Assembly (NCBI GenBank): GCA_965223205.1
Contig: OZ244990.1
Coordinates: forward strand, 2,761,632-2,825,631
DNA from: Candidatus Eiseniibacteriota bacterium
Lineage (GTDB): Bacteria > Eisenbacteria > RBG-16-71-46 > CAVPCR01 > CBDCWB01
Length of the DNA: 64,000 bases
Reading direction: 5' to 3'
The notes beneath the pieces were generated by a model. It was not told the origin of the DNA, searched no databases, and worked only from the letters and a program-made list of their open reading frames with translations. A program made the translations under genes and the position numbers. Below are positions 2,461-11,875 of this stretch, in pieces. Every line of letters starts with the position of its first letter. Position 1 is the stretch's first letter.

Positions 2461-2817
2461 ATGGAACACTTCCTACCGCTCATTTTCCTGATGCTCTTGG
2501 TGGCGGCGTTTGCCGGCGGCACGATCTTTGCGACCCAGTTCGCCGGTCGCTTCAGACCCACCGTCGCTAAACGCACGACCTACGAGTGCGGCGTCTCCCC
2601 GGTGGGAGATGCCCGCGAGCGCGTGCCCGTGCGCTTCTACCTGGTCGCCATGCTGTTCATCATCTTTGATATCGAGGCGACGTTCTTGATCCCCTGGGCT
2701 GTCCTCTTCAGGAAGTTGGGAGTCTTTGGGTTGATCGAGATGGGCGTGTTCATCGGCATGCTGGTCTTGGGTTACATCTACATCTGGCGCCGCGGCGCCT
2801 TCAACTGGAACGCCTGA
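2461..2817 (+). CDS. nuoA: NADH-quinone oxidoreductase subunit A
   Basis: YECG, RFYLVAMLFIIFDIE and YIWRRGAFNW motifs. ATG 2461 preferred over TTG 2440. Confidence 0.96.
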   Translation: MEHFLPLIFLMLLVAAFAGGTIFATQFAGRFRPTVAKRTTYECGVSPVGDARERVPVRFYLVAMLFIIFDIEATFLIPWAVLFRKLGVFGLIEMGVFIGMLVLGYIYIWRRGAFNWNA

Positions 2818-3287
2818 TGGCGCTGACCGGTAGTGAACGCGCCGAGTTCGACCGGGCCTGTGCCCCGTTCCCCGACCGGCGGAGCGGCCTTTTGGGGGCG
2901 CTCTACGTCATCCAGGGGCAGCGCGGCGGCTGGATCGATCGCGATGCCATGCGCGACGTGGCCGAGTACTTTGACCTGCACCCTATGCAGGTCGAGGAAG
3001 TCGTCACTTTCTATACGATGTTCAATACCCAGCCGGTCGGGCGCCACCACCTCCAAGTGTGCCGATCGGTGTCGTGTTTCGTCATGGGGTGTAACGGCAT
3101 AGTCGAGCACCTGCGCCGGAAGCTCGGCATCGAGCCCGGGCAGACCACCGCCGATGGCCGCTTTACGCTGAATACGGTCGAGTGCCTGGGGGCCTGTGGC
3201 ACCGCGCCGGCCATGCAGGTGAACGAGGACTACCACGAGAATCTGACCGTCGAGTCGCTCGACCGCCTCTTGGACGAGCTGCCCTAA
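2817..3287 (+). CDS. nuoE: NADH-quinone oxidoreductase subunit E (2Fe-2S)
   Basis: EEVVTFYTMF, CRSVSC and ECLGAC..AP (four 2Fe-2S cysteines intact). Overlaps nuoA stop (TGATG). Confidence 0.94.
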   Translation: MALTGSERAEFDRACAPFPDRRSGLLGALYVIQGQRGGWIDRDAMRDVAEYFDLHPMQVEEVVTFYTMFNTQPVGRHHLQVCRSVSCFVMGCNGIVEHLRRKLGIEPGQTTADGRFTLNTVECLGACGTAPAMQVNEDYHENLTVESLDRLLDELP

Positions 3288-4297
3288 TGCCGGAGTGGGC
3301 TGGGGTCATCGCCGGTGCAGCGACCAAGGCTCTGGTCGTCTTCGTCGTCCTCTTAACCATCGCCGCTTATACCGTCTATCTGGAACGCAAAGTGCTCGGC
3401 CACATTCAAACGCGCCGCGGCCCTTTGTACGTCGGCTTTCACGGTCTGTTGCAACCGCTGGCCGACGTGGTCAAGCTCCTCACCAAAGAGGACGTCATTC
3501 CCGACGGCGCCGATCGGGGCCTGTTTGCGCTGGCGCCAGCCATCTCGGTGTTTACGGCCCTGGTGGCCATTGCGGTCATTCCGTTCGGCGATCACTGGAC
3601 CCTCTTCGGGCATCGCATCCCCTTGAGTGTCGCTGACTTGAACGTCGGCATTCTTTACATTTTGGCGGTGACGAGCTTGGGGGTCTACGGCCTGATCCTC
3701 GGTGGTTGGTCTTCCAACAACAAGTTCGCGCTGCTGGGTAGCCTGCGCAGCTCGGCGCAGATGATCAGCTACGAGCTGGCGCTCGGGCTGACGTTGATCG
3801 GCCCGATCATGTTGGCGGGTACCCTGAGAATGCGGGGCATCGTCGAAGCGCAAACCGACCTCTGGTTCATCTTCCTGCAGCCCTTGGCGTTCGTCCTCTA
3901 TCTGATCAGCGGCCTAGCCGAAATCAACCGGGTGCCGTTCGACCTCCCGGAGGCTGAGTCAGAGCTGGTAGCCGGTTACCACATCGAATATTCCGGGATG
4001 AAGTTCGCCTTCTTTTTCCTCGGCGAGTACGTCAACATGATCACCGTCGCGGCGATCGCAACAACGTTGTTTCTCGGTGGTTGGCACGGCCCGTTCGGCT
4101 GGAACCACCCGGCCTTGGGGCCGATTTGGTTCTTGGCGAAGGTGGTGGCGGTGATGCTTTTCTTCATCTGGGTGCGTGGCACGCTGCCGCGCTTTCGCTA
4201 CGACCAGCTCATGAACTTTGGGTGGAAGGTGCTGTTGCCCTTGGCGCTTCTCAATATCGTGCTGACCGCCGCCGGCATCGTCCTCTGGGGGGGCTGA
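3287..4297 (+). CDS. nuoH: NADH-quinone oxidoreductase subunit H
   Basis: ERKVLGHIQTRRGP, LLQPLADVVKLLTKE, NRVPFDLPEAESELVAGY, RFRYDQLM. ATG 3287 overlaps nuoE stop (TAATG). Confidence 0.97.
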   Translation: MPEWAGVIAGAATKALVVFVVLLTIAAYTVYLERKVLGHIQTRRGPLYVGFHGLLQPLADVVKLLTKEDVIPDGADRGLFALAPAISVFTALVAIAVIPFGDHWTLFGHRIPLSVADLNVGILYILAVTSLGVYGLILGGWSSNNKFALLGSLRSSAQMISYELALGLTLIGPIMLAGTLRMRGIVEAQTDLWFIFLQPLAFVLYLISGLAEINRVPFDLPEAESELVAGYHIEYSGMKFAFFFLGEYVNMITVAAIATTLFLGGWHGPFGWNHPALGPIWFLAKVVAVMLFFIWVRGTLPRFRYDQLMNFGWKVLLPLALLNIVLTAAGIVLWGG

Positions 4298-4298
4298 G

Positions 4299-4871
4299 AT
4301 GGATGCTCTCCTCTTTGTGCTCTTGGCGTTGACCACAATTGGCGCGTCCATTGCTCTGGTCGCCCATCGCAACGCGGTCTACTGCGCGCTGGCGATGGTG
4401 GTGGTCTTCGTGGCCACCGCCATCTTGTTCCTCTTGCTCGAGGCGCCCTTTTTGGCCGCGCTCCAGGTCATAGTCTACGCGGGCGCCATCGTCGTGCTCT
4501 TCTTGTTTGTCATTTCTTACCTGAACCTGCGCACCGACTCATTGGTCGAGACCAACCGTGGCGCGGTGATGTTTGCCGTGGCGGCTGCCGTCCTCCTGGC
4601 GGTGGAGTTGTGGGTGGCGGTGGCCACCCGCCAGCCGCAGGTGGCGCCGGTCACCGCCGAGGGCTTTGGCTCGGTGGAGCACGTCGGCGAGGCCCTGTTC
4701 TCCCGCTACATCGTCGCTTTTGAGGTGACCTCGGTCCTTCTGATCGTCGCTATGGTCGGTGCCGTGGTTTTGGCACAACGGGTGGCGAAGCGCCGCGGCG
4801 AGCCCGCCGGCATTGCCGAAACGGCCACCGAGGTCGGCGCTGTCGACGAAGTCAAGGAGCTGAGCGCTTGA
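4299..4871 (+). CDS. nuoJ: NADH-quinone oxidoreductase subunit J
   Basis: [16 protein letters not shown] and [16 protein letters not shown]. Confidence 0.95.
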
Positions 4872-5167
4872 ATCCGACTTGGGTCATGGGGTTGGCTGCA
4901 GCCCTGTTCACCATCGGCACGGTTGGCGTCCTCGTGCGCCGCGAGGCGCTGGTGATCTTCATGTGCATCGAGTTGATGTTGAATGCGGTCAACCTGACCT
5001 TTGTCGCCGCCAGCCGCCAGCTCGGTAACATCGACGGGCACATCGCCACGCTGTTCGCGCTGGCAGTGGCGGCCGCCGAGGTGGTGGTTGGCCTGGCAAT
5101 CATCGTGGCCATCTTCCGGAAAGAGCAGACGACCGATGTCGATCGGATCAAGCTCTTGCGCTTCTAA
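4868..5167 (+). CDS. nuoK: NADH-quinone oxidoreductase subunit K
   Basis: [12 protein letters not shown] and [15 protein letters not shown] start overlaps nuoJ stop. Confidence 0.96.
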
Positions 5168-5182
5168 GCGGGGCGACAGCCG

Positions 5183-7099
5183 ATGACCGGACTCTTTTGG
5201 ATCCCCCTCCTGCCGCTTCTGGGGGCCCTGGTCAACGGCCTGCTCGGCCGGCGGCTTTGGGCGGTGGCGGCCGCGTGGGTGGCGCAGGCCGCCGCGCTGG
5301 GCGCCTTCATTGCCGCGCTCTTGGCGGTGGTCCAGCTCCTCGGTCTCCCGGCTGCCGAGCGCGTCTTAACGCAGAACGCCGGCACGTGGTTGGCGGTCGG
5401 ACCATTGAGCGTCGATTGGGCGCTCCGGCTTGACGCCTTGAGTGCGGTCATGGTGCTGGTGGTGACCGGCGTCGGATTTTTGATCCACGTTTACTCGCGC
5501 GGTTACATCCACGGCGACGGCGCCGAGTGGCGCTACTTCACCTACCTGAACCTGTTCCTGACAGCGATGCTGTTCTTGGTGCTGGGGCAGAACCTCTTGG
5601 TGGTCTTCTTGGGTTGGGAGGGGGTGGGGTTGTGCTCCTACCTCCTCATTGGCTTTTGGTACACCAAGGAGGCACCGCCGCGGGCCGGCATGAAGGCGTT
5701 CATCGTCAATCGGGTCGGTGACTTCGCTTTTCTCCTGGGCATGTTGCTCTTGGTCCATACGTTTCAGACCTTGGACATCCCCGAGATTCTGGAGCGCATG
5801 CCCCGCGAGTTGCCGTGGATGAGCGGCATCGCGACGGCGGTGGCCGTCCTGCTCTTTATTGGGGCTTGTGGCAAGTCCGCCCAACTGCCGCTCCACGTCT
5901 GGTTGCCCGACGCCATGGAGGGGCCGACCCCGGTCTCGGCCTTGATCCATGCTGCCACCATGGTGACCGCTGGCGTCTACCTGGTCGTCCGCATGCACGT
6001 GGTCTACCTCTGGGCGTCACCCAACGTGCTGGTGGCTATCACCGCCGTCGGGCTGACCACGGCCCTGGTGGCTGCCACCATCGGTCTGGTGCAAAACGAT
6101 ATCAAGCGCGTCTTGGCCTACTCGACCGTGTCACAGCTGGGTTACATGTTCCTGGCTTGTGGGGTCGGAGCGTTCAGCGCCGCCGTTTTCCACCTGATGA
6201 CCCACGCCTTCTTTAAGGCGCTCTTGTTCTTGGGGTCGGGTAGCGTCATCCACGCGATGGCGGGTGAGCAGGACATGCGGCGCATGGGCGGGCTCAGGCG
6301 TCACCTGCCGGTGACGCATGCGACGTTCTTGATCGGCACCCTGGCCATCGCCGGGATTTTTCCTCTGGCCGGCTTCTTTTCCAAAGATGCCATCCTTTTG
6401 GAAGTGTTTATGGAGCGCGGCCCGATCCTCTGGGGTTTGGGCACCCTCGGCGCGTTCTTGACGGCGTTTTACATGTTCCGGCTTATGGCTTTGACGTTTT
6501 ATGGCAAAAGCCGGGTGCCCGATGACGTCCACCCCCACGAGTCGCCGCGCTCGATGACCGTGGCGTTGCAGGTCTTGGCGGTCTTGTCGGTGATCGGCGG
6601 TTGGGTGGGCATCACCTTCATCAAGGGGGGCAACCGTTTTGCCCAGTTCCTGGAGCCGGTGTTCGACTCCGCCTCGCACATTGAGGTGCTCGAGCACCAC
6701 GGCCACCACCCGAGCCTGGCCACCGAGCTGACTCTCGGGGGGATTGCCTTGGCTGTGGCGGCGGCTGGCCTCGTACTGGCGGCATGGGCCTACGTCCGTA
6801 CCCCGAACCTGGCGGCGCGGCTCCAGCGCGCGGCCGGTCCGCTCTACGGGCTCTTCCGTGGCAAGTACTTCTTTGACGAGATCTACGAGGCGCTCATCAC
6901 CCGTCCCTTGGCGCGGCTGGCGCACACGACCTACGAGCGGTTTGACTCCGCCGTGGTAGACGGCGTGGTCAACGGCACCGGCAGTCTTGTGCGCGGCGCC
7001 GGTCGCTTGCTCCGGCCCATGCAGTCGGGCTACGTCCGCCGCTACGCCATGATCTTTGCACTCGGCGTCGCTGCCCTCGTCGGCTTGACGATGCGCTAG
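5183..7099 (+). CDS. nuoL: NADH-quinone oxidoreductase subunit L
   Basis: WEGVGLCSYLLIGFW, GKSAQLPLHVWLPDAMEGPTPVSALIHAATMV, HLMTHAFFKALLF. Confidence 0.97.
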   Translation: MTGLFWIPLLPLLGALVNGLLGRRLWAVAAAWVAQAAALGAFIAALLAVVQLLGLPAAERVLTQNAGTWLAVGPLSVDWALRLDALSAVMVLVVTGVGFLIHVYSRGYIHGDGAEWRYFTYLNLFLTAMLFLVLGQNLLVVFLGWEGVGLCSYLLIGFWYTKEAPPRAGMKAFIVNRVGDFAFLLGMLLLVHTFQTLDIPEILERMPRELPWMSGIATAVAVLLFIGACGKSAQLPLHVWLPDAMEGPTPVSALIHAATMVTAGVYLVVRMHVVYLWASPNVLVAITAVGLTTALVAATIGLVQNDIKRVLAYSTVSQLGYMFLACGVGAFSAAVFHLMTHAFFKALLFLGSGSVIHAMAGEQDMRRMGGLRRHLPVTHATFLIGTLAIAGIFPLAGFFSKDAILLEVFMERGPILWGLGTLGAFLTAFYMFRLMALTFYGKSRVPDDVHPHESPRSMTVALQVLAVLSVIGGWVGITFIKGGNRFAQFLEPVFDSASHIEVLEHHGHHPSLATELTLGGIALAVAAAGLVLAAWAYVRTPNLAARLQRAAGPLYGLFRGKYFFDEIYEALITRPLARLAHTTYERFDSAVVDGVVNGTGSLVRGAGRLLRPMQSGYVRRYAMIFALGVAALVGLTMR

Positions 7100-7102
7100 G
7101 GG

Positions 7103-8701
7103 ATGGATGTGACCGATCACCTCTTGAGTTGGCTCTTCCTCATCCCGCTGGTCACCGGCGTCGGACTATTGGCTTTGCCACGCCGCTGGGGCGGCGCCGC
7201 CATGGCGACGGCGTTGGCTGGCGCCACCGCCACGCTGGTCGTGTCGCTGGTAGCCTGGTCTCGATTCGACGCCGGCACCGCCCGCCTCCAGTTCGAGGAG
7301 CAACTCGCTTGGATCCCGGCGATCGGTGCGTCCTACCATGTCGGCGCTGACGGGCTCAGCATCACCCTCTTGCTCCTCACGGCGTTGATCACGCCCTTGG
7401 CAATCTGGGGATCGGCAGCGTCGATCACCCATCGCCGGCGCGACTTCCTGGCGTTTCTCTTGTTGCTCGAGGCAGCGATGATCGGTGTCTTCATCGCCCT
7501 CGATCTCTTGCTCTTCTATCTGTTCTGGGAAGCGATGCTGATCCCGATGGCGCTCTTAATCGGCATCTGGGGTGGGTCCAACCGCGTCTACGCCGCCGTC
7601 AAGTTCTTCCTGTACACCATGGCCGGCAGTGTCTTGATGCTGGTGGCCATCTTGACCTTGGTCGGCGTCGGGCGCGGGGCGCTGGGAAACCCCACCTTCG
7701 ACCTCCTTGAGCTCCAACAATTGGCCTTTACGCCTGGCCTGGAGCGTTGGCTGTTCTTGGCCTTTGCCTTGGCGTTTGCCATCAAGGTGCCGCTCTTTCC
7801 GCTGCACACCTGGTTGCCCGACGCCCACACGCAGGCGCCCACTGCCGGCAGCGTGATTTTGGCGGGCGTCCTCCTGAAAATGGGGACCTACGGTTTCCTA
7901 CGCTTTTGCCTGCCCCTGTTTCCGGGGGCCATGGCGGCGGCGGCGCCGTGGTTTGCCTGGCTTGCCCTCTTCGGCATCATCTATGGGGCGTTGATGGCCT
8001 ATGCCCAGACGGACATCAAGAAGTTGGTGGCGTACTCGAGCGTCAGCCACCTGGGGTGGGTTGTGCTCGGCCTCTTTGCGCTCAACGAAGCCGGGTTGGC
8101 TGGCAGTCTTTTGCAGATGGTCAACCATGGCATCGTCACCGGCGCCCTCTTCCTAGTGGTGGGCATGGTCTACGACCGCGCCCACACCCGCGAGATCGAC
8201 CGCTTTGGCGGCTTGGCCCAGACGATGCCCGTGTGCGCCAGCTTCATGCTGCTTTTTACCTTGGCGTCGATCGGGTTGCCGGGGACCAACGGCTTCGTCG
8301 GCGAGTTCTCGATTTTGGTCGGCGCCTTCCAAGCCCGGCCAGCCTACGCGGTGGTGGCGGCATTGGGCGTCGTCCTGGGCGCGCTCTATATGCTGAGTCT
8401 TTATCGGCGCGTGTTCTTCGGCGCCCCCAGCGAGCTGTCCGCCCAGCTGCCTGATCTGAGTTTGCGCGAGAAGCTGGTGCTGGTGCCTTTGGCTGTCCTG
8501 GTGGTGTGGATCGGTGTCCAACCGGGGCCGACCATGGACGTCTCGCGCGCCACGCTGCAGGCCCTCGAAAACCAGGCCGAGGCCAAGCGCCGGGCGAGCG
8601 CCGAGCCACCCGCCGAAGCGCGCGCCTGGGTTTGGGACGCTGAATCTGGGACCCGCTTGCGCACCAGCCTGGCGACGCCGGTGCGCCGGAGCACACCATG
8701 A
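7103..8701 (+). CDS. nuoM: NADH-quinone oxidoreductase subunit M (with a hydrophilic C-terminal extension)
   Basis: AIKVPLFPLHTWLPDAHTQAPTAGS, LLKMGTYG, ASIGLPGTNGFVGE. Confidence 0.96.
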   Translation: MDVTDHLLSWLFLIPLVTGVGLLALPRRWGGAAMATALAGATATLVVSLVAWSRFDAGTARLQFEEQLAWIPAIGASYHVGADGLSITLLLLTALITPLAIWGSAASITHRRRDFLAFLLLLEAAMIGVFIALDLLLFYLFWEAMLIPMALLIGIWGGSNRVYAAVKFFLYTMAGSVLMLVAILTLVGVGRGALGNPTFDLLELQQLAFTPGLERWLFLAFALAFAIKVPLFPLHTWLPDAHTQAPTAGSVILAGVLLKMGTYGFLRFCLPLFPGAMAAAAPWFAWLALFGIIYGALMAYAQTDIKKLVAYSSVSHLGWVVLGLFALNEAGLAGSLLQMVNHGIVTGALFLVVGMVYDRAHTREIDRFGGLAQTMPVCASFMLLFTLASIGLPGTNGFVGEFSILVGAFQARPAYAVVAALGVVLGALYMLSLYRRVFFGAPSELSAQLPDLSLREKLVLVPLAVLVVWIGVQPGPTMDVSRATLQALENQAEAKRRASAEPPAEARAWVWDAESGTRLRTSLATPVRRSTP

Positions 8702-10146
8702 TTGAGTTTCCCGTCATCGACTTGCGACTGCTTTGGCCCGAGTTGATTCTGGCGCTCGGCGCCACGCTCCTCTTGTTGAGCGAGCCGGGCGCCAGTCGCC
8801 GGCAGTCCCGCTGGCCGGCGGTGGCAGCGCTCTTGATCGGGGTGGCGGCCATTGCCAGCCTTTGGTTTACCGGGAGCGGTGGCCAGACCGGCGATCACAT
8901 GCTCTGGGTCGACTCGTTCACCCAGTTCTTCCGTGTGCTCATTTTGGGGTCCACCCTCCTGGTCTTGTTGATGGCGCCGGCCTACGTGCGCCGGCTCCAG
9001 ATCGAGAGCGGTGAGTTCTACGCGCTGATTTTGTTTGCTGCTCTGGGCGCCATTCTGATGGCGGGCGCCCAGAATTTCGTGGTCTTGTTCTTGGGCTTGG
9101 AGGTGCACTCCATCGCCCTCTACGTCTTGGCCGGGTCGCGGGTCGATCGGATGGAGTCCGAGGAGTCGGCGCTCAAGTATCTGTTGCTGGGTGCCTTTGC
9201 CTCGGCGTTCCTCCTGTACGGCATCGCCCTGATTTATGCCACCACCGGCACCATGAACCTGACCGAGGTGGCCGCGGTGCTCCGGGCCGGTGAGCCCGAC
9301 CGGCTCATGCTCTACGCCGGCGTCGGGCTGGTCATTGTCGGGCTAGGTTTCAAAATCGCTGCCGTGCCGTTTCACATGTGGACCCCCGATGTGTACGAAG
9401 GGGCACCGACGGTGGTCACCGCTCTCATGACCGTCGTGCCGAAGGCGGCAGCCTTTGCAGCGGTGCTCCGTGTGTTCACCATCGGCCTGGTGCCGGTCAT
9501 GGGGCACTGGCAGCCCATCTGGCTGGTGCTGGCGGTGTTGACGATGTCGGTCGGCAACCTGCTGGCGTTGGGCCAAACGAGCCTCAAGCGACTGCTGGCC
9601 TATTCCTCCATCGCCCACGCCGGCTACCTCCTGGTGGGCGTGGTGGCCGGCACCGAGTTGGGCCGCTCGGCGGTCCTCTACTACCTCGTTGCCTATGCGC
9701 TGATGAATCTGGGTGCGTTTGCGGTGATCTCGATGTTCGAGCGCTCGGACGGCCGACAGGCGCTTGAATCGTACGACGGCCTAGCGGTGCGCCAACCGGT
9801 GGTGGGGGGCATGCTGGCCCTGTTCATGTTCTCGTTGGCGGGGATTCCGCCGACCGCCGGCTTCATGGGTAAGCTGATGCTCTTCCGCGCCGCGGTCGAG
9901 GCTGGTCACCAGGGTCTGGCGATCATCGCCGTCCTCAACAGCGTGGTGGCGGCGTACTACTACTTGCGGGTCGTCGTCGCCGTGACCATGCGGGAGCCCA
10001 GTGAATCCGCCCCACCGGTGGTCGCCACGCCGTGGGGAGTGTGGGTGACGATCGCCGTCGCCGCGCTGGGCACCCTGCAATTTGGGCTGATCCCGGGTTT
10101 CGTCTACGACTTCGCCCGCGCCTCCACCCGCTTCCTACTGGGCTAG
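8698..10146 (+). CDS. nuoN: NADH-quinone oxidoreductase subunit N
   Basis: ESALKYLLLGAFAS, FKIAAVPFHMWTPDVYEGAPT, KRLLAYSSIAHAGY. Confidence 0.96.
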   Translation: MIEFPVIDLRLLWPELILALGATLLLLSEPGASRRQSRWPAVAALLIGVAAIASLWFTGSGGQTGDHMLWVDSFTQFFRVLILGSTLLVLLMAPAYVRRLQIESGEFYALILFAALGAILMAGAQNFVVLFLGLEVHSIALYVLAGSRVDRMESEESALKYLLLGAFASAFLLYGIALIYATTGTMNLTEVAAVLRAGEPDRLMLYAGVGLVIVGLGFKIAAVPFHMWTPDVYEGAPTVVTALMTVVPKAAAFAAVLRVFTIGLVPVMGHWQPIWLVLAVLTMSVGNLLALGQTSLKRLLAYSSIAHAGYLLVGVVAGTELGRSAVLYYLVAYALMNLGAFAVISMFERSDGRQALESYDGLAVRQPVVGGMLALFMFSLAGIPPTAGFMGKLMLFRAAVEAGHQGLAIIAVLNSVVAAYYYLRVVVAVTMREPSESAPPVVATPWGVWVTIAVAALGTLQFGLIPGFVYDFARASTRFLLG

Positions 10147-11378
10147 CTCCACAACTCGACGGTCACCACTTCGCCGGCATCCAGCTGCGTTGTCTCGGCG
10201 TCGACGATGCAAAGCCCGTTGGCGCGCGTAGCCGACGCCAAGTTCCCTGAATCCTGGGCGCCCGCCAAGCGGGCATGCCAGCGACCGGCGCGCACCTCAA
10301 GGATGGCGCGCATGTAGTGGGTCTTGCCGGCGGCTTTGGTGATGGAGTGATCCAGGATTGCCCCAAACCGCGGACGATCGGGGGCCGGGACACCGCCCAT
10401 GACGCCGAGGGCCGGTCGCACGAATTGGTCAAAGACCACGAGCGACGACACCGGGTTGCCGGGTAGCCCGAAGATAAGACGACCCTCGGCCACTCCGAAG
10501 ACTTGCGGCTTCCCCGGCTTCATGGCCACTTGATAGGCCTGCACATCTCCGAATTGGGTGAGGATGTGGCGGGTGTGGTCGAAATCACCTACCGAAACAC
10601 CCCCAGTGGTTAAGAGGCAGTCCGCCGTCTCCAGGCCGCGGCGCACGCGGGCTTCGACGGCGGTCGGGTCATCGCCGACCCAGCCGAGGTCGATGGGCAC
10701 CCCACCGGCGGCGCTGATGGCTCCGATCAACCCATAGCGATTGGAGTCACGGATTTGCCCCGGTCCCGGCTCCTGGCAGACCGGCACCAACTCGTCACCG
10801 GTTGAAAGGACGGCGACGCGGGGTTGGGCATAGACCGGCACCGGATCGACGCCCACCGCCGCCAAGACGCTGAGCTGGGCCGGCCCCAGGCGCGTGCCGG
10901 CCTCGAGAACGAGGTCCCCTTGGTGGACTGCTTCTCCGCGCCGGCGGATGTGTTGTCCGGCGCGCGGCGCTCGGGAGATGGCCACCGACTCCGTCCCTCG
11001 GGGCTCGGTGTCCTCGACCATGACCACCGCGTCGGCACCTTCCGGCAGCGGGGCGCCGGTCATAATGCGGACAACGGTGCCCTTCTCGCAGGTGAAGTCG
11101 GCGCGTTGGCCGGCGGCGACGGTGGTTACAATCGGTAGGATTACCGGCGCGGCGCCCGAGGCGCGCTCTACATCGGCGGCGCGCACCGCAAAGCCGTCCA
11201 TCGCCGAATGGTCGAAGGGCGGCAGGTCGCCGCTTGCCGAGACGCATTCGGCAAGGACCCGACCGCCGGCCTCGGTGAGTCCAATCGTCGTGGCGGTGAG
11301 CGGGCGCACAGCCGCCTGTACAAGCGCCCTGAAGCTATCGGGGTCGATGGCCGTGTGGGTGGTGGGGACGCCGGTCAT
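10143..11378 (-). CDS. moeA: Molybdopterin molybdotransferase
   Basis: PPFDHSAMDGFAV, RIMTGAPLPEGADAVV, STGDEL, GGVSVGDFD, GLPGNPVS. ATG 11378 overlaps the upstream stop (ATGA). Confidence 0.95.
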   Translation of the reverse strand: MTGVPTTHTAIDPDSFRALVQAAVRPLTATTIGLTEAGGRVLAECVSASGDLPPFDHSAMDGFAVRAADVERASGAAPVILPIVTTVAAGQRADFTCEKGTVVRIMTGAPLPEGADAVVMVEDTEPRGTESVAISRAPRAGQHIRRRGEAVHQGDLVLEAGTRLGPAQLSVLAAVGVDPVPVYAQPRVAVLSTGDELVPVCQEPGPGQIRDSNRYGLIGAISAAGGVPIDLGWVGDDPTAVEARVRRGLETADCLLTTGGVSVGDFDHTRHILTQFGDVQAYQVAMKPGKPQVFGVAEGRLIFGLPGNPVSSLVVFDQFVRPALGVMGGVPAPDRPRFGAILDHSITKAAGKTHYMRAILEVRAGRWHARLAGAQDSGNLASATRANGLCIVDAETTQLDAGEVVTVELWS

Positions 11379-11875
11379 CGGTCGAGCGACGGGTGGGCCG
11401 GGTGCTCGGCGCGCCCGGCCAGGATGTTCACCCCGTGGCGGAGCGCCTCGTAGACTTGATCCAGACATTCAGCCACCGCCTTGGGGTTGCCGGGCAAGTT
11501 GACGACGGCGGTGTCGGCGCGAATCCCGGCGACGCCGCGCGACAGGACGGCCGCGGGGGTGTGCGCCGCCGAGGCGGCGCGCATGGCTTCGGCGATGCCC
11601 GGTGCCTGGCGCTCCAAGACCGCCAGCGTCGCTTCGGGGGTCACGTCCCGGGGCGCGAAGCCAGTGCCGCCACTGGTCAGGATCAGCTCCACGTCGGGGC
11701 GGGCGGCGGTCTCGATGAGCCAAGCGCTGATCAGCTCCGCTTCATCGGCCACGCATGCTGCCTCGACGACCCGGTCGCCCCGGGCCTCAACGTAGTCCCG
11801 CATGGCCGGGCCCGAGCGGTCGCCGGTGGTGCCCTCGGAGACCCGGTCGGAGACTGTTAAGAGGGCGACGTTCAT
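11375..11875 (-). CDS. mogA: Molybdopterin adenylyltransferase (MogA/MoaB family)
   Basis: LTVSDR, D.SGP, TSGGTGFAPRDVTPEAT, NLPGNPKA. Confidence 0.92.
   Translation of the reverse strand: MNVALLTVSDRVSEGTTGDRSGPAMRDYVEARGDRVVEAACVADEAELISAWLIETAARPDVELILTSGGTGFAPRDVTPEATLAVLERQAPGIAEAMRAASAAHTPAAVLSRGVAGIRADTAVVNLPGNPKAVAECLDQVYEALRHGVNILAGRAEHPAHPSLDR

Follow-up and report, generated by a model that had tools for sequence, protein, structure and literature searches.

Complex I of Escherichia coli (nuoA-N) and Thermus thermophilus (nqo1-14) is the canonical form of the enzyme, with 14 core subunits that are each present in one copy and carry their cofactor motifs, and with the genes in a single A-to-N operon. 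Several departures from this layout have been described. In Bdellovibrionota, nuoAHJKLMN occupies a conserved site and the other nuo genes lie elsewhere (PMC13147790); in Acidobacteria, nuoB and nuoI lie apart from operons of the type nuoACD(EFG)HJKLMN (Hausmann et al., bioRxiv 10.1101/197269); and marine actinomycetes have an extra, partial nuoAHJKLMN cassette (PMC6676996). Split nuo clusters are common, as a survey of ~11,000 species found both split and single-cluster complex I within most clades (PMC12361115). Here we analyse a 64,000-nucleotide stretch of DNA (hereafter the window; C1:2761632-2825631, C1 being contig OZ244990.1) from a Candidatus Eiseniibacteriota bacterium (genome G000, 5.27 Mb), in which an operon nuoA-E-H-J-K-L-M-N occupies positions 2461-10146 of the + strand (coordinates without prefix are window positions). 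The window very probably holds one of two transcription units for an ordinary 14-subunit complex I encoded by a split operon, the second unit being a nuoB-C-D-F-G-I cluster on the same chromosome; what is unusual is the layout of the genes and not the enzyme.

The locus shares with the canonical complex I the 14 core subunits in one copy each and the cofactor motifs, and differs from the single A-to-N operon in that the genes stand in two loci ~0.93 Mb apart. As in Bdellovibrionota, membrane-arm and peripheral-arm genes form two clusters, each in canonical order, but the nuoE of Bdellovibrionota lies with nuoF and nuoG in the peripheral cluster (B-C-D-E-F-G-I in L007, L010 and L015-L017), whereas here it lies between nuoA and nuoH. 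As in Acidobacteria, the main operon lacks some iron-sulphur (Fe-S) subunits, which are encoded elsewhere, and retains nuoE; unlike in Acidobacteria, nuoC, D, F and G are likewise outside the main operon, in one compact cluster together with nuoB and nuoI. The actinomycete cassette likewise consists mostly of membrane-arm genes, but it is additional to a full operon and lacks nuoE, whereas the operon studied here is the sole partner of nuoB-C-D-F-G-I and contains the one nuoE of the genome. There is no complete 14-gene nuo operon in the genome, so that the window operon is not an extra-copy cassette. The 11-subunit type without NuoE, F and G (Nuo11/NDH-1/Fpo) is represented in this genome by a paralogous locus, and not by the window operon. 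The partition seen here, in which nuoE stands between nuoA and nuoH, adds a gene-order variant to a known phenomenon; a literature search found no paper with the strings nuoAEHJKLMN or nuoBCDFGI, and a search for Eisenbacteria together with complex I found nothing specific.

The window operon consists of eight consecutive, close-packed open reading frames (ORFs), all on the + strand, which match the expected Pfam or NCBIfam families with E-values from 1e-29 to 1e-227. These are nuoA, encoding the membrane subunit ND3 (2461-2817, with an alternative TTG start at 2440; PF00507, E 2e-35); nuoE, encoding the 24-kDa subunit of the NADH module (N-module) with the 2Fe-2S cluster N1a (2817-3287; PF01257, E 4e-53; TIGR01958, 181 bits for a cut-off of 142); nuoH, encoding the quinone-channel membrane subunit ND1 (3287-4297; PF00146, E 3e-131); nuoJ, for ND6 (4299-4871; PF00499, E 2e-36); nuoK, for ND4L (4868-5167; NF004320, 121.6 bits, cut-off 57); nuoL, for the antiporter-like subunit ND5 (5183-7099; NF005141, 757 bits, cut-off 556); nuoM, for ND4 (7103-8701; TIGR01972, 619 bits, cut-off 264); and nuoN, for ND2 (8698-10146; TIGR01770, 453.5 bits, cut-off 333). 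Read in the sequence, the stop codon of nuoA and the start codon of nuoE have one base in common (TGATG, 2815-2819), as have the stop of nuoE and the ATG of nuoH at 3287 (TAATG, 3285-3289); the ORF coordinates give a 1-nt gap between nuoH and nuoJ, a 4-nt overlap for J/K, gaps of 15 nt for K/L and 3 nt for L/M, and a 4-nt overlap for M/N. NuoE is a full-length, thioredoxin-like 2Fe-2S protein of 156 aa with the ligand pattern CX4C...CX3C (CRSVSC and CLGAC), and it has one tblastn match in the whole genome, so that the window copy is the sole one. Searches of the ORFs, of Pfam and NCBIfam and by tblastn detected no homologue of nuoB, C, D, F, G or I in or adjoining the window locus, which is flanked by thrS upstream (481-2319) and by a convergent moeA/glp-like gene downstream (10143-11468). 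An earlier note, made from the sequence of the window alone, had described this operon with its tight A/E, E/H and H/J junctions, the four 2Fe-2S cysteines of NuoE and the absence of nuoB, C, D, F, G and I from the locus, and in all of this it was right.

The genes absent from the window form a cluster of their own, nuoB-C-D-F-G-I, at C1:1826661-1832607 (+), with intergenic gaps of 1-40 nt. Comparison of the 14 subunits with the whole genome by tblastn recovered the sets A-E-H-J-K-L-M-N and B-C-D-F-G-I once each, besides one contiguous set of 11 subunits, with a single match each for NuoE, NuoF and NuoG. The window operon and the second cluster add up to 8 + 6 = 14 core subunits, each present once, with no duplicate and no gap. 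The second-cluster NuoD scores 480 bits against an NCBIfam equivalog cut-off of 459 and NuoF 570 bits against the TIGR01959 equivalog cut-off of 559; NuoB, NuoC and NuoI exceed their NCBIfam subfamily cut-offs, and NuoG is matched through its N-terminal Fe-S domains (Fer2_4, NADH-G_4Fe-4S_3 and Fer4_Nqo3). In the translations of this cluster, the cysteine motifs for N3, N2, N6a/b, N1b, N4 and N5 are legible: NuoF contains GAGAYICGEE, of the flavin mononucleotide (FMN)/NADH site, and CGQCSPCREG; NuoB contains CCAIEF, GACASSGG and GCPP (N2 ligands); and NuoI contains CxxCxxCxxxCP twice (2x[4Fe-4S]). NuoD carries HPATHG and DRLNY, with the His and Tyr of the quinone site.

The integrity of the subunits was measured on the alignment columns that are invariant in 14-30 relatives, canonical single-operon complexes among them. 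The 14 proteins keep 94-100% of these columns, except NuoJ (6/7, 86%). Among the window products, NuoA keeps 12/12, NuoH 39/39, NuoL 95/97, NuoM 105/106 and NuoN 47/47; among those of the second cluster, NuoB keeps 31/31, NuoI 16/16 and NuoD 56/58. By this measure, none of the 14 subunits appears to be degenerating.

The nearest relatives of the second-cluster genes are those of the window genes. In single-gene trees, our genome is sister to G096 both for NuoD of the second cluster (support 96) and for NuoH of the window (support 100), with the 11-subunit paralogues placed elsewhere on long branches. The same pair is recovered with concatenated A/H/J/K/L/M/N (support 100) and with concatenated B/C/D/I (support 99), and both concatenated trees place the 11-subunit set far away, on a long branch. 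Identity to G096 is even across both loci, at 56-74%, with values of 56% for NuoA, 62% for E, 71% for H, 56% for J, 74% for K, 67% for L, 61% for M and 61% for N in the window cluster, and of 74% for NuoB, 58% for C, 73% for D, 71% for F, 65% for G and 72% for I in the second. G096 itself has the same two-locus split, with nuoE on its contig C1 and nuoB-C-D-F-G-I on its contig C3, and so has G062, where A-E-H-J-K-L-M-N is accompanied by B-C-D-F..G-I. In this last genome, the second cluster contains an insertion of ~4.8 kb between nuoF and nuoG (L084:10712-15547).

With a single nuoBCD-FG-I cluster and congruent trees, the combination that the earlier note had itself named as refuting its proposal, the locus is better described as a split operon than as the reduced complex I proposed there. 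Should the latter proposal hold, the products of the window would form a distinct complex, in which the membrane arm and NuoE would either sit on an input module of non-Nuo type or serve as a redox-independent ion transporter. In all solved complex I structures, NuoE is found next to NuoF and NuoG at the distal end of the peripheral arm, away from any contact with membrane subunits, and this counts against such a complex. Stand-alone nuoAHJKLMN cassettes do exist in actinomycetes, as extra copies (PMC6676996), and the window operon has tightly coupled genes and recurs in several families. A reduced complex would, however, leave B-C-D-F-G-I without a membrane arm and without NuoE, and NuoE without NuoF; moreover, NuoH and NuoA retain all their conserved positions, and the genome offers no group-4 hydrogenase, no Mrp and no extra NuoD-like or NuoF-like genes. 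We thus regard a distinct reduced complex as very unlikely. An inventory of nuo and hydrogenase genes yielded the three nuo loci and neither a group-4 hydrogenase nor a formate dehydrogenase (FDH)-type partner. The PF00346 family, which covers NuoD and the large subunit of group-4 hydrogenases, has two members only in the genome, and neither this search nor tblastn with the 14 subunits found any further NuoD-like, NuoF-like or antiporter-like gene. Since such extra genes are lacking, the genome provides no partner of hydrogenase, Mrp or FDH type, and input modules of these three types were rejected as candidates, together with the idea, also put forward in the earlier note, that the arm docks on an alternative module.

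An origin of the arrangement in the assembly or the binning, through a chimeric contig or collapsed paralogues, might be suspected because the genome is a draft, with 39 contigs and a contamination estimated at 2.5%. All three nuo loci are nevertheless located on the single 4.58-Mb contig C1, the junctions are 1-nt overlaps without relic sequence, and the order A-E-H-J-K-L-M-N recurs identically in four other independently assembled genomes (L004, G096, G062 and G107). An artefact is therefore hardly credible, and the view that this is an evolved arrangement and not an assembly gap, already expressed in the earlier note, is upheld.

The third nuo locus is a contiguous 11-subunit cluster, A-B-C-D-H-I-J-K-L-M-N, at C1:4067848-4078301 (-) (L058), which lacks nuoE, F and G and has its own nuoB, C, D and I. 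Its products share 32-52% identity with their paralogues of the 14-subunit set in the same genome (tblastn), and its gene content suggests that it is an independent, self-sufficient second complex. In this cluster, NuoI is extended (305 aa) and NuoL is long (701 aa). The earlier note had opposed the window operon to known truncated complexes that lose E, F and G; that pattern does occur in this genome, as a separate cluster. Its suggestion that the Fe-S core is transcribed separately and shared stands in its first half, nuoB-C-D-F-G-I being a cluster elsewhere, and falls in its second: sharing of the Fe-S core is not needed because B, C, D and I are also encoded within the 11-subunit cluster. 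A more restricted form of sharing has also to be considered, in which a single N-module, with NuoE from the window and NuoF and NuoG from the second locus, would serve both complexes and provide NADH input to the 11-subunit one too. The absence of E, F and G from the 11-subunit cluster and the single genomic copy of each would fit such a module, as would the position of nuoE and nuoF/G in separate units, which implies that co-transcription with docking partners is not required. Yet the B, C, D and I proteins of the second set are only 32-52% identical to those of the first and fall on distant branches, the second set lacks the upstream palindrome common to the two halves (see below), and 11-subunit complexes are usually thought to take other donors, such as ferredoxin. 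A shared N-module consequently appears improbable to us.

Some observations weigh against our preferred interpretation, a split operon for one ordinary complex I. The NuoG of the second cluster is short (557 aa) and reaches 432 bits for a full-length TIGR01973 cut-off of 470. The membrane and peripheral trees disagree in their deeper branches for families f7 and f12. Co-regulation through the palindrome is not universal, because nuoB of G096 has no such site within 400 nt. Finally, we infer the co-assembly of the products of two loci from stoichiometry, phylogeny and known structures. As to stoichiometry, the sole NuoE is encoded in the window and its obligate partners NuoF and NuoG in the second cluster. 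As to the tree conflict, f7 and f12 join the other families of the phylum in the tree of membrane subunits and fall on the alphaproteobacterial/set-2 (11-subunit) side in the B/C/D/I tree (support 100); the two modules may have had separate histories in these families, or the rooting or long branches may be responsible.

In the split-operon interpretation, the enzyme would be a conventional, proton-pumping NADH:quinone oxidoreductase, for which the first unit, in the window, would provide NuoE and the seven membrane subunits (A, H and J to N), and the second unit the remaining six (NuoB, C, D, F, G and I). Once translated, NuoE would take its place beside NuoF and NuoG at the peripheral arm's tip, and the quinone module, composed of B, C, D and I, would sit on NuoH and NuoA. 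Both units could be co-expressed, together with the F1Fo ATP synthase operon, through a common palindromic operator.

The palindrome in question, TTGTGCATTTTTTCACAA, is located at 2400-2417 (no strand assigned), 44 nt before the ATG of nuoA, and is a putative operator with a CRP/FNR-like TGTGn-N6-TCACA core. The 18-bp pattern TTGTG-N8-CACAA has four exact copies in the 5.27 Mb of the genome, for ~1.9 expected by composition. One of the other copies lies 40 nt before the ATG of nuoB (C1:1826604-1826621; L057:4604-4621), another 125 nt before atpB of the complete atpBEFHAGDC operon (C1:242368-242385; L095:10368-10385), and the fourth is intragenic; no palindrome was found upstream of the 11-subunit cluster. 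In G003, which has a different nuo partition, exact palindromes are present upstream of both the nuoA and the nuoB clusters, with a third ~0.9 kb upstream of atpB, and G096 has an exact palindrome before nuoA. With one or two mismatches, the palindrome also precedes nuoB in G037, G006, G055 and G115. A relaxed genome scan allowing two mismatches gave 47 matches for 51 with a reversed-pattern control, that is, no excess; because this count did not exceed the control, relaxed sites were not used and the analysis was restricted to exact and near-exact sites. The palindrome is most simply read as the putative operator of one CRP/FNR-type regulator that would coordinate both nuo halves and the ATP synthase, and it looks like the predicted operator of a small oxidative phosphorylation (OXPHOS) regulon in the phylum. 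Additional exact palindromes in relatives (L097:2993-4117, L098:3163-4038, L103:3080-4513 and L105:2686-3900) adjoin genes of energy metabolism, encoding a glycine-cleavage T protein, multihaem cytochromes c and a CCG-domain protein.

Upstream of the palindrome, a candidate promoter can be seen by eye on the + strand, with TTGACA at 2362-2367, an 18-nt spacer and TAGCGT at 2386-2391. We rate it as weak because a scan of the window between 2000 and 11600 for the sigma-70 consensus reported no site there. A similar layout, TTGACA-N17-TAGCTT followed by the palindrome, precedes nuoA in G096 and atpB in G000. On the other side of the second cluster's palindrome, 285 nt upstream of nuoB and divergent from it, lies a gene for a P-loop NTPase of the NUBPL/ApbC/Mrp-type Fe-S carriers (PF10609, E 7e-98; C1:1825540-1826376 (-), L057:3540-4376). 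It adjoins nuoB in G000 only, its homologue in G096 being ~6.4 kb away and the other fetched loci lacking it, and it was dropped as a candidate member of the system, its adjacency to nuoB being weakly conserved.

The distribution of nuo genes in the phylum (apparently Eisenbacteria) was then compared with a sample of 151 genomes and with fetched loci centred on nuoE, nuoF and nuoD (L059-L094, from G003, G015, G036, G044, G055, G062, G066, G096, G107 and other relatives). The nearest named record by NuoE is a metagenome-assembled genome (MAG) of Candidatus Eisenbacteria, with 63% identity and the same A-E-H-J-K-L-M-N order. Families f1, f2 and f16 combine AEHJKLMN with BCDFGI; f17 has AEHJKLMN with BCDGI, and F alone; f9 has AEFHJKLMN with BCDGI; f4 and f5 have ACEFHJKLMN with BDGI; f7 has ACEHJKLMN with I..BDFG; and f14 has EJKLMN with ABCDFGHI. 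In f3 and f12, there is an A-to-N operon from which I alone is missing and nuoI was not located, and f6, f8, f11 and f15 have a canonical operon and no second cluster. The two clusters are complementary in every split form and nearly always keep the canonical gene order, with a boundary that is specific to the family. The B, D, G and I genes, sometimes with C and F, move as a group, and nuoE stays with nuoJ-N in every split form. The subunits that leave are those of the main electron path, whereas the gene of NuoE, the subunit with the off-pathway cluster N1a, remains beside those for proton pumping.

The search with NuoE also returned two layouts from outside the phylum, B-C-D-E-F-G-I in Bdellovibrionales and A-C-D-E-H-J-K-L-M-N, without B, F, G and I, in MAGs labelled delta-proteobacterial. 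Operons A-C-D-E-F-G-H-J-K-L without B and I occur there as well; the loci with these last two layouts are L006, L014 and L018, from MAGs labelled uncultured delta proteobacterium, and L013. The NuoD and NuoH proteins of these operons (L006, L013, L014 and L018) group with those of f13 and f14 in the trees.

The partitions of the phylum could have arisen by stepwise relocation, or through duplication of a whole operon and subsequent reciprocal loss of genes. That selection, and not neutral accident, underlies the recurrent complementary split is a possibility that we hold to be doubtful; if selected, the split could allow separate control or assembly of the Fe-S chain, rejoined by the common OXPHOS operator.

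Gene order is reportedly not needed for complex I to assemble in E. coli. In the present genome, 0.93 Mb separates the genes for NuoE and NuoF, two subunits that pair tightly in the enzyme; this indicates that the pair can do without co-transcription. Scoring complex I by the completeness of its operon would wrongly call the enzyme of this organism truncated. The partitions observed across the phylum provide a natural data set on the break-up of a 14-gene operon, in which duplication with reciprocal loss can be compared with stepwise relocation, and the palindrome present at both nuo halves and at the atp operon offers a testable handle on the regulation of respiratory genes in an uncultured phylum.

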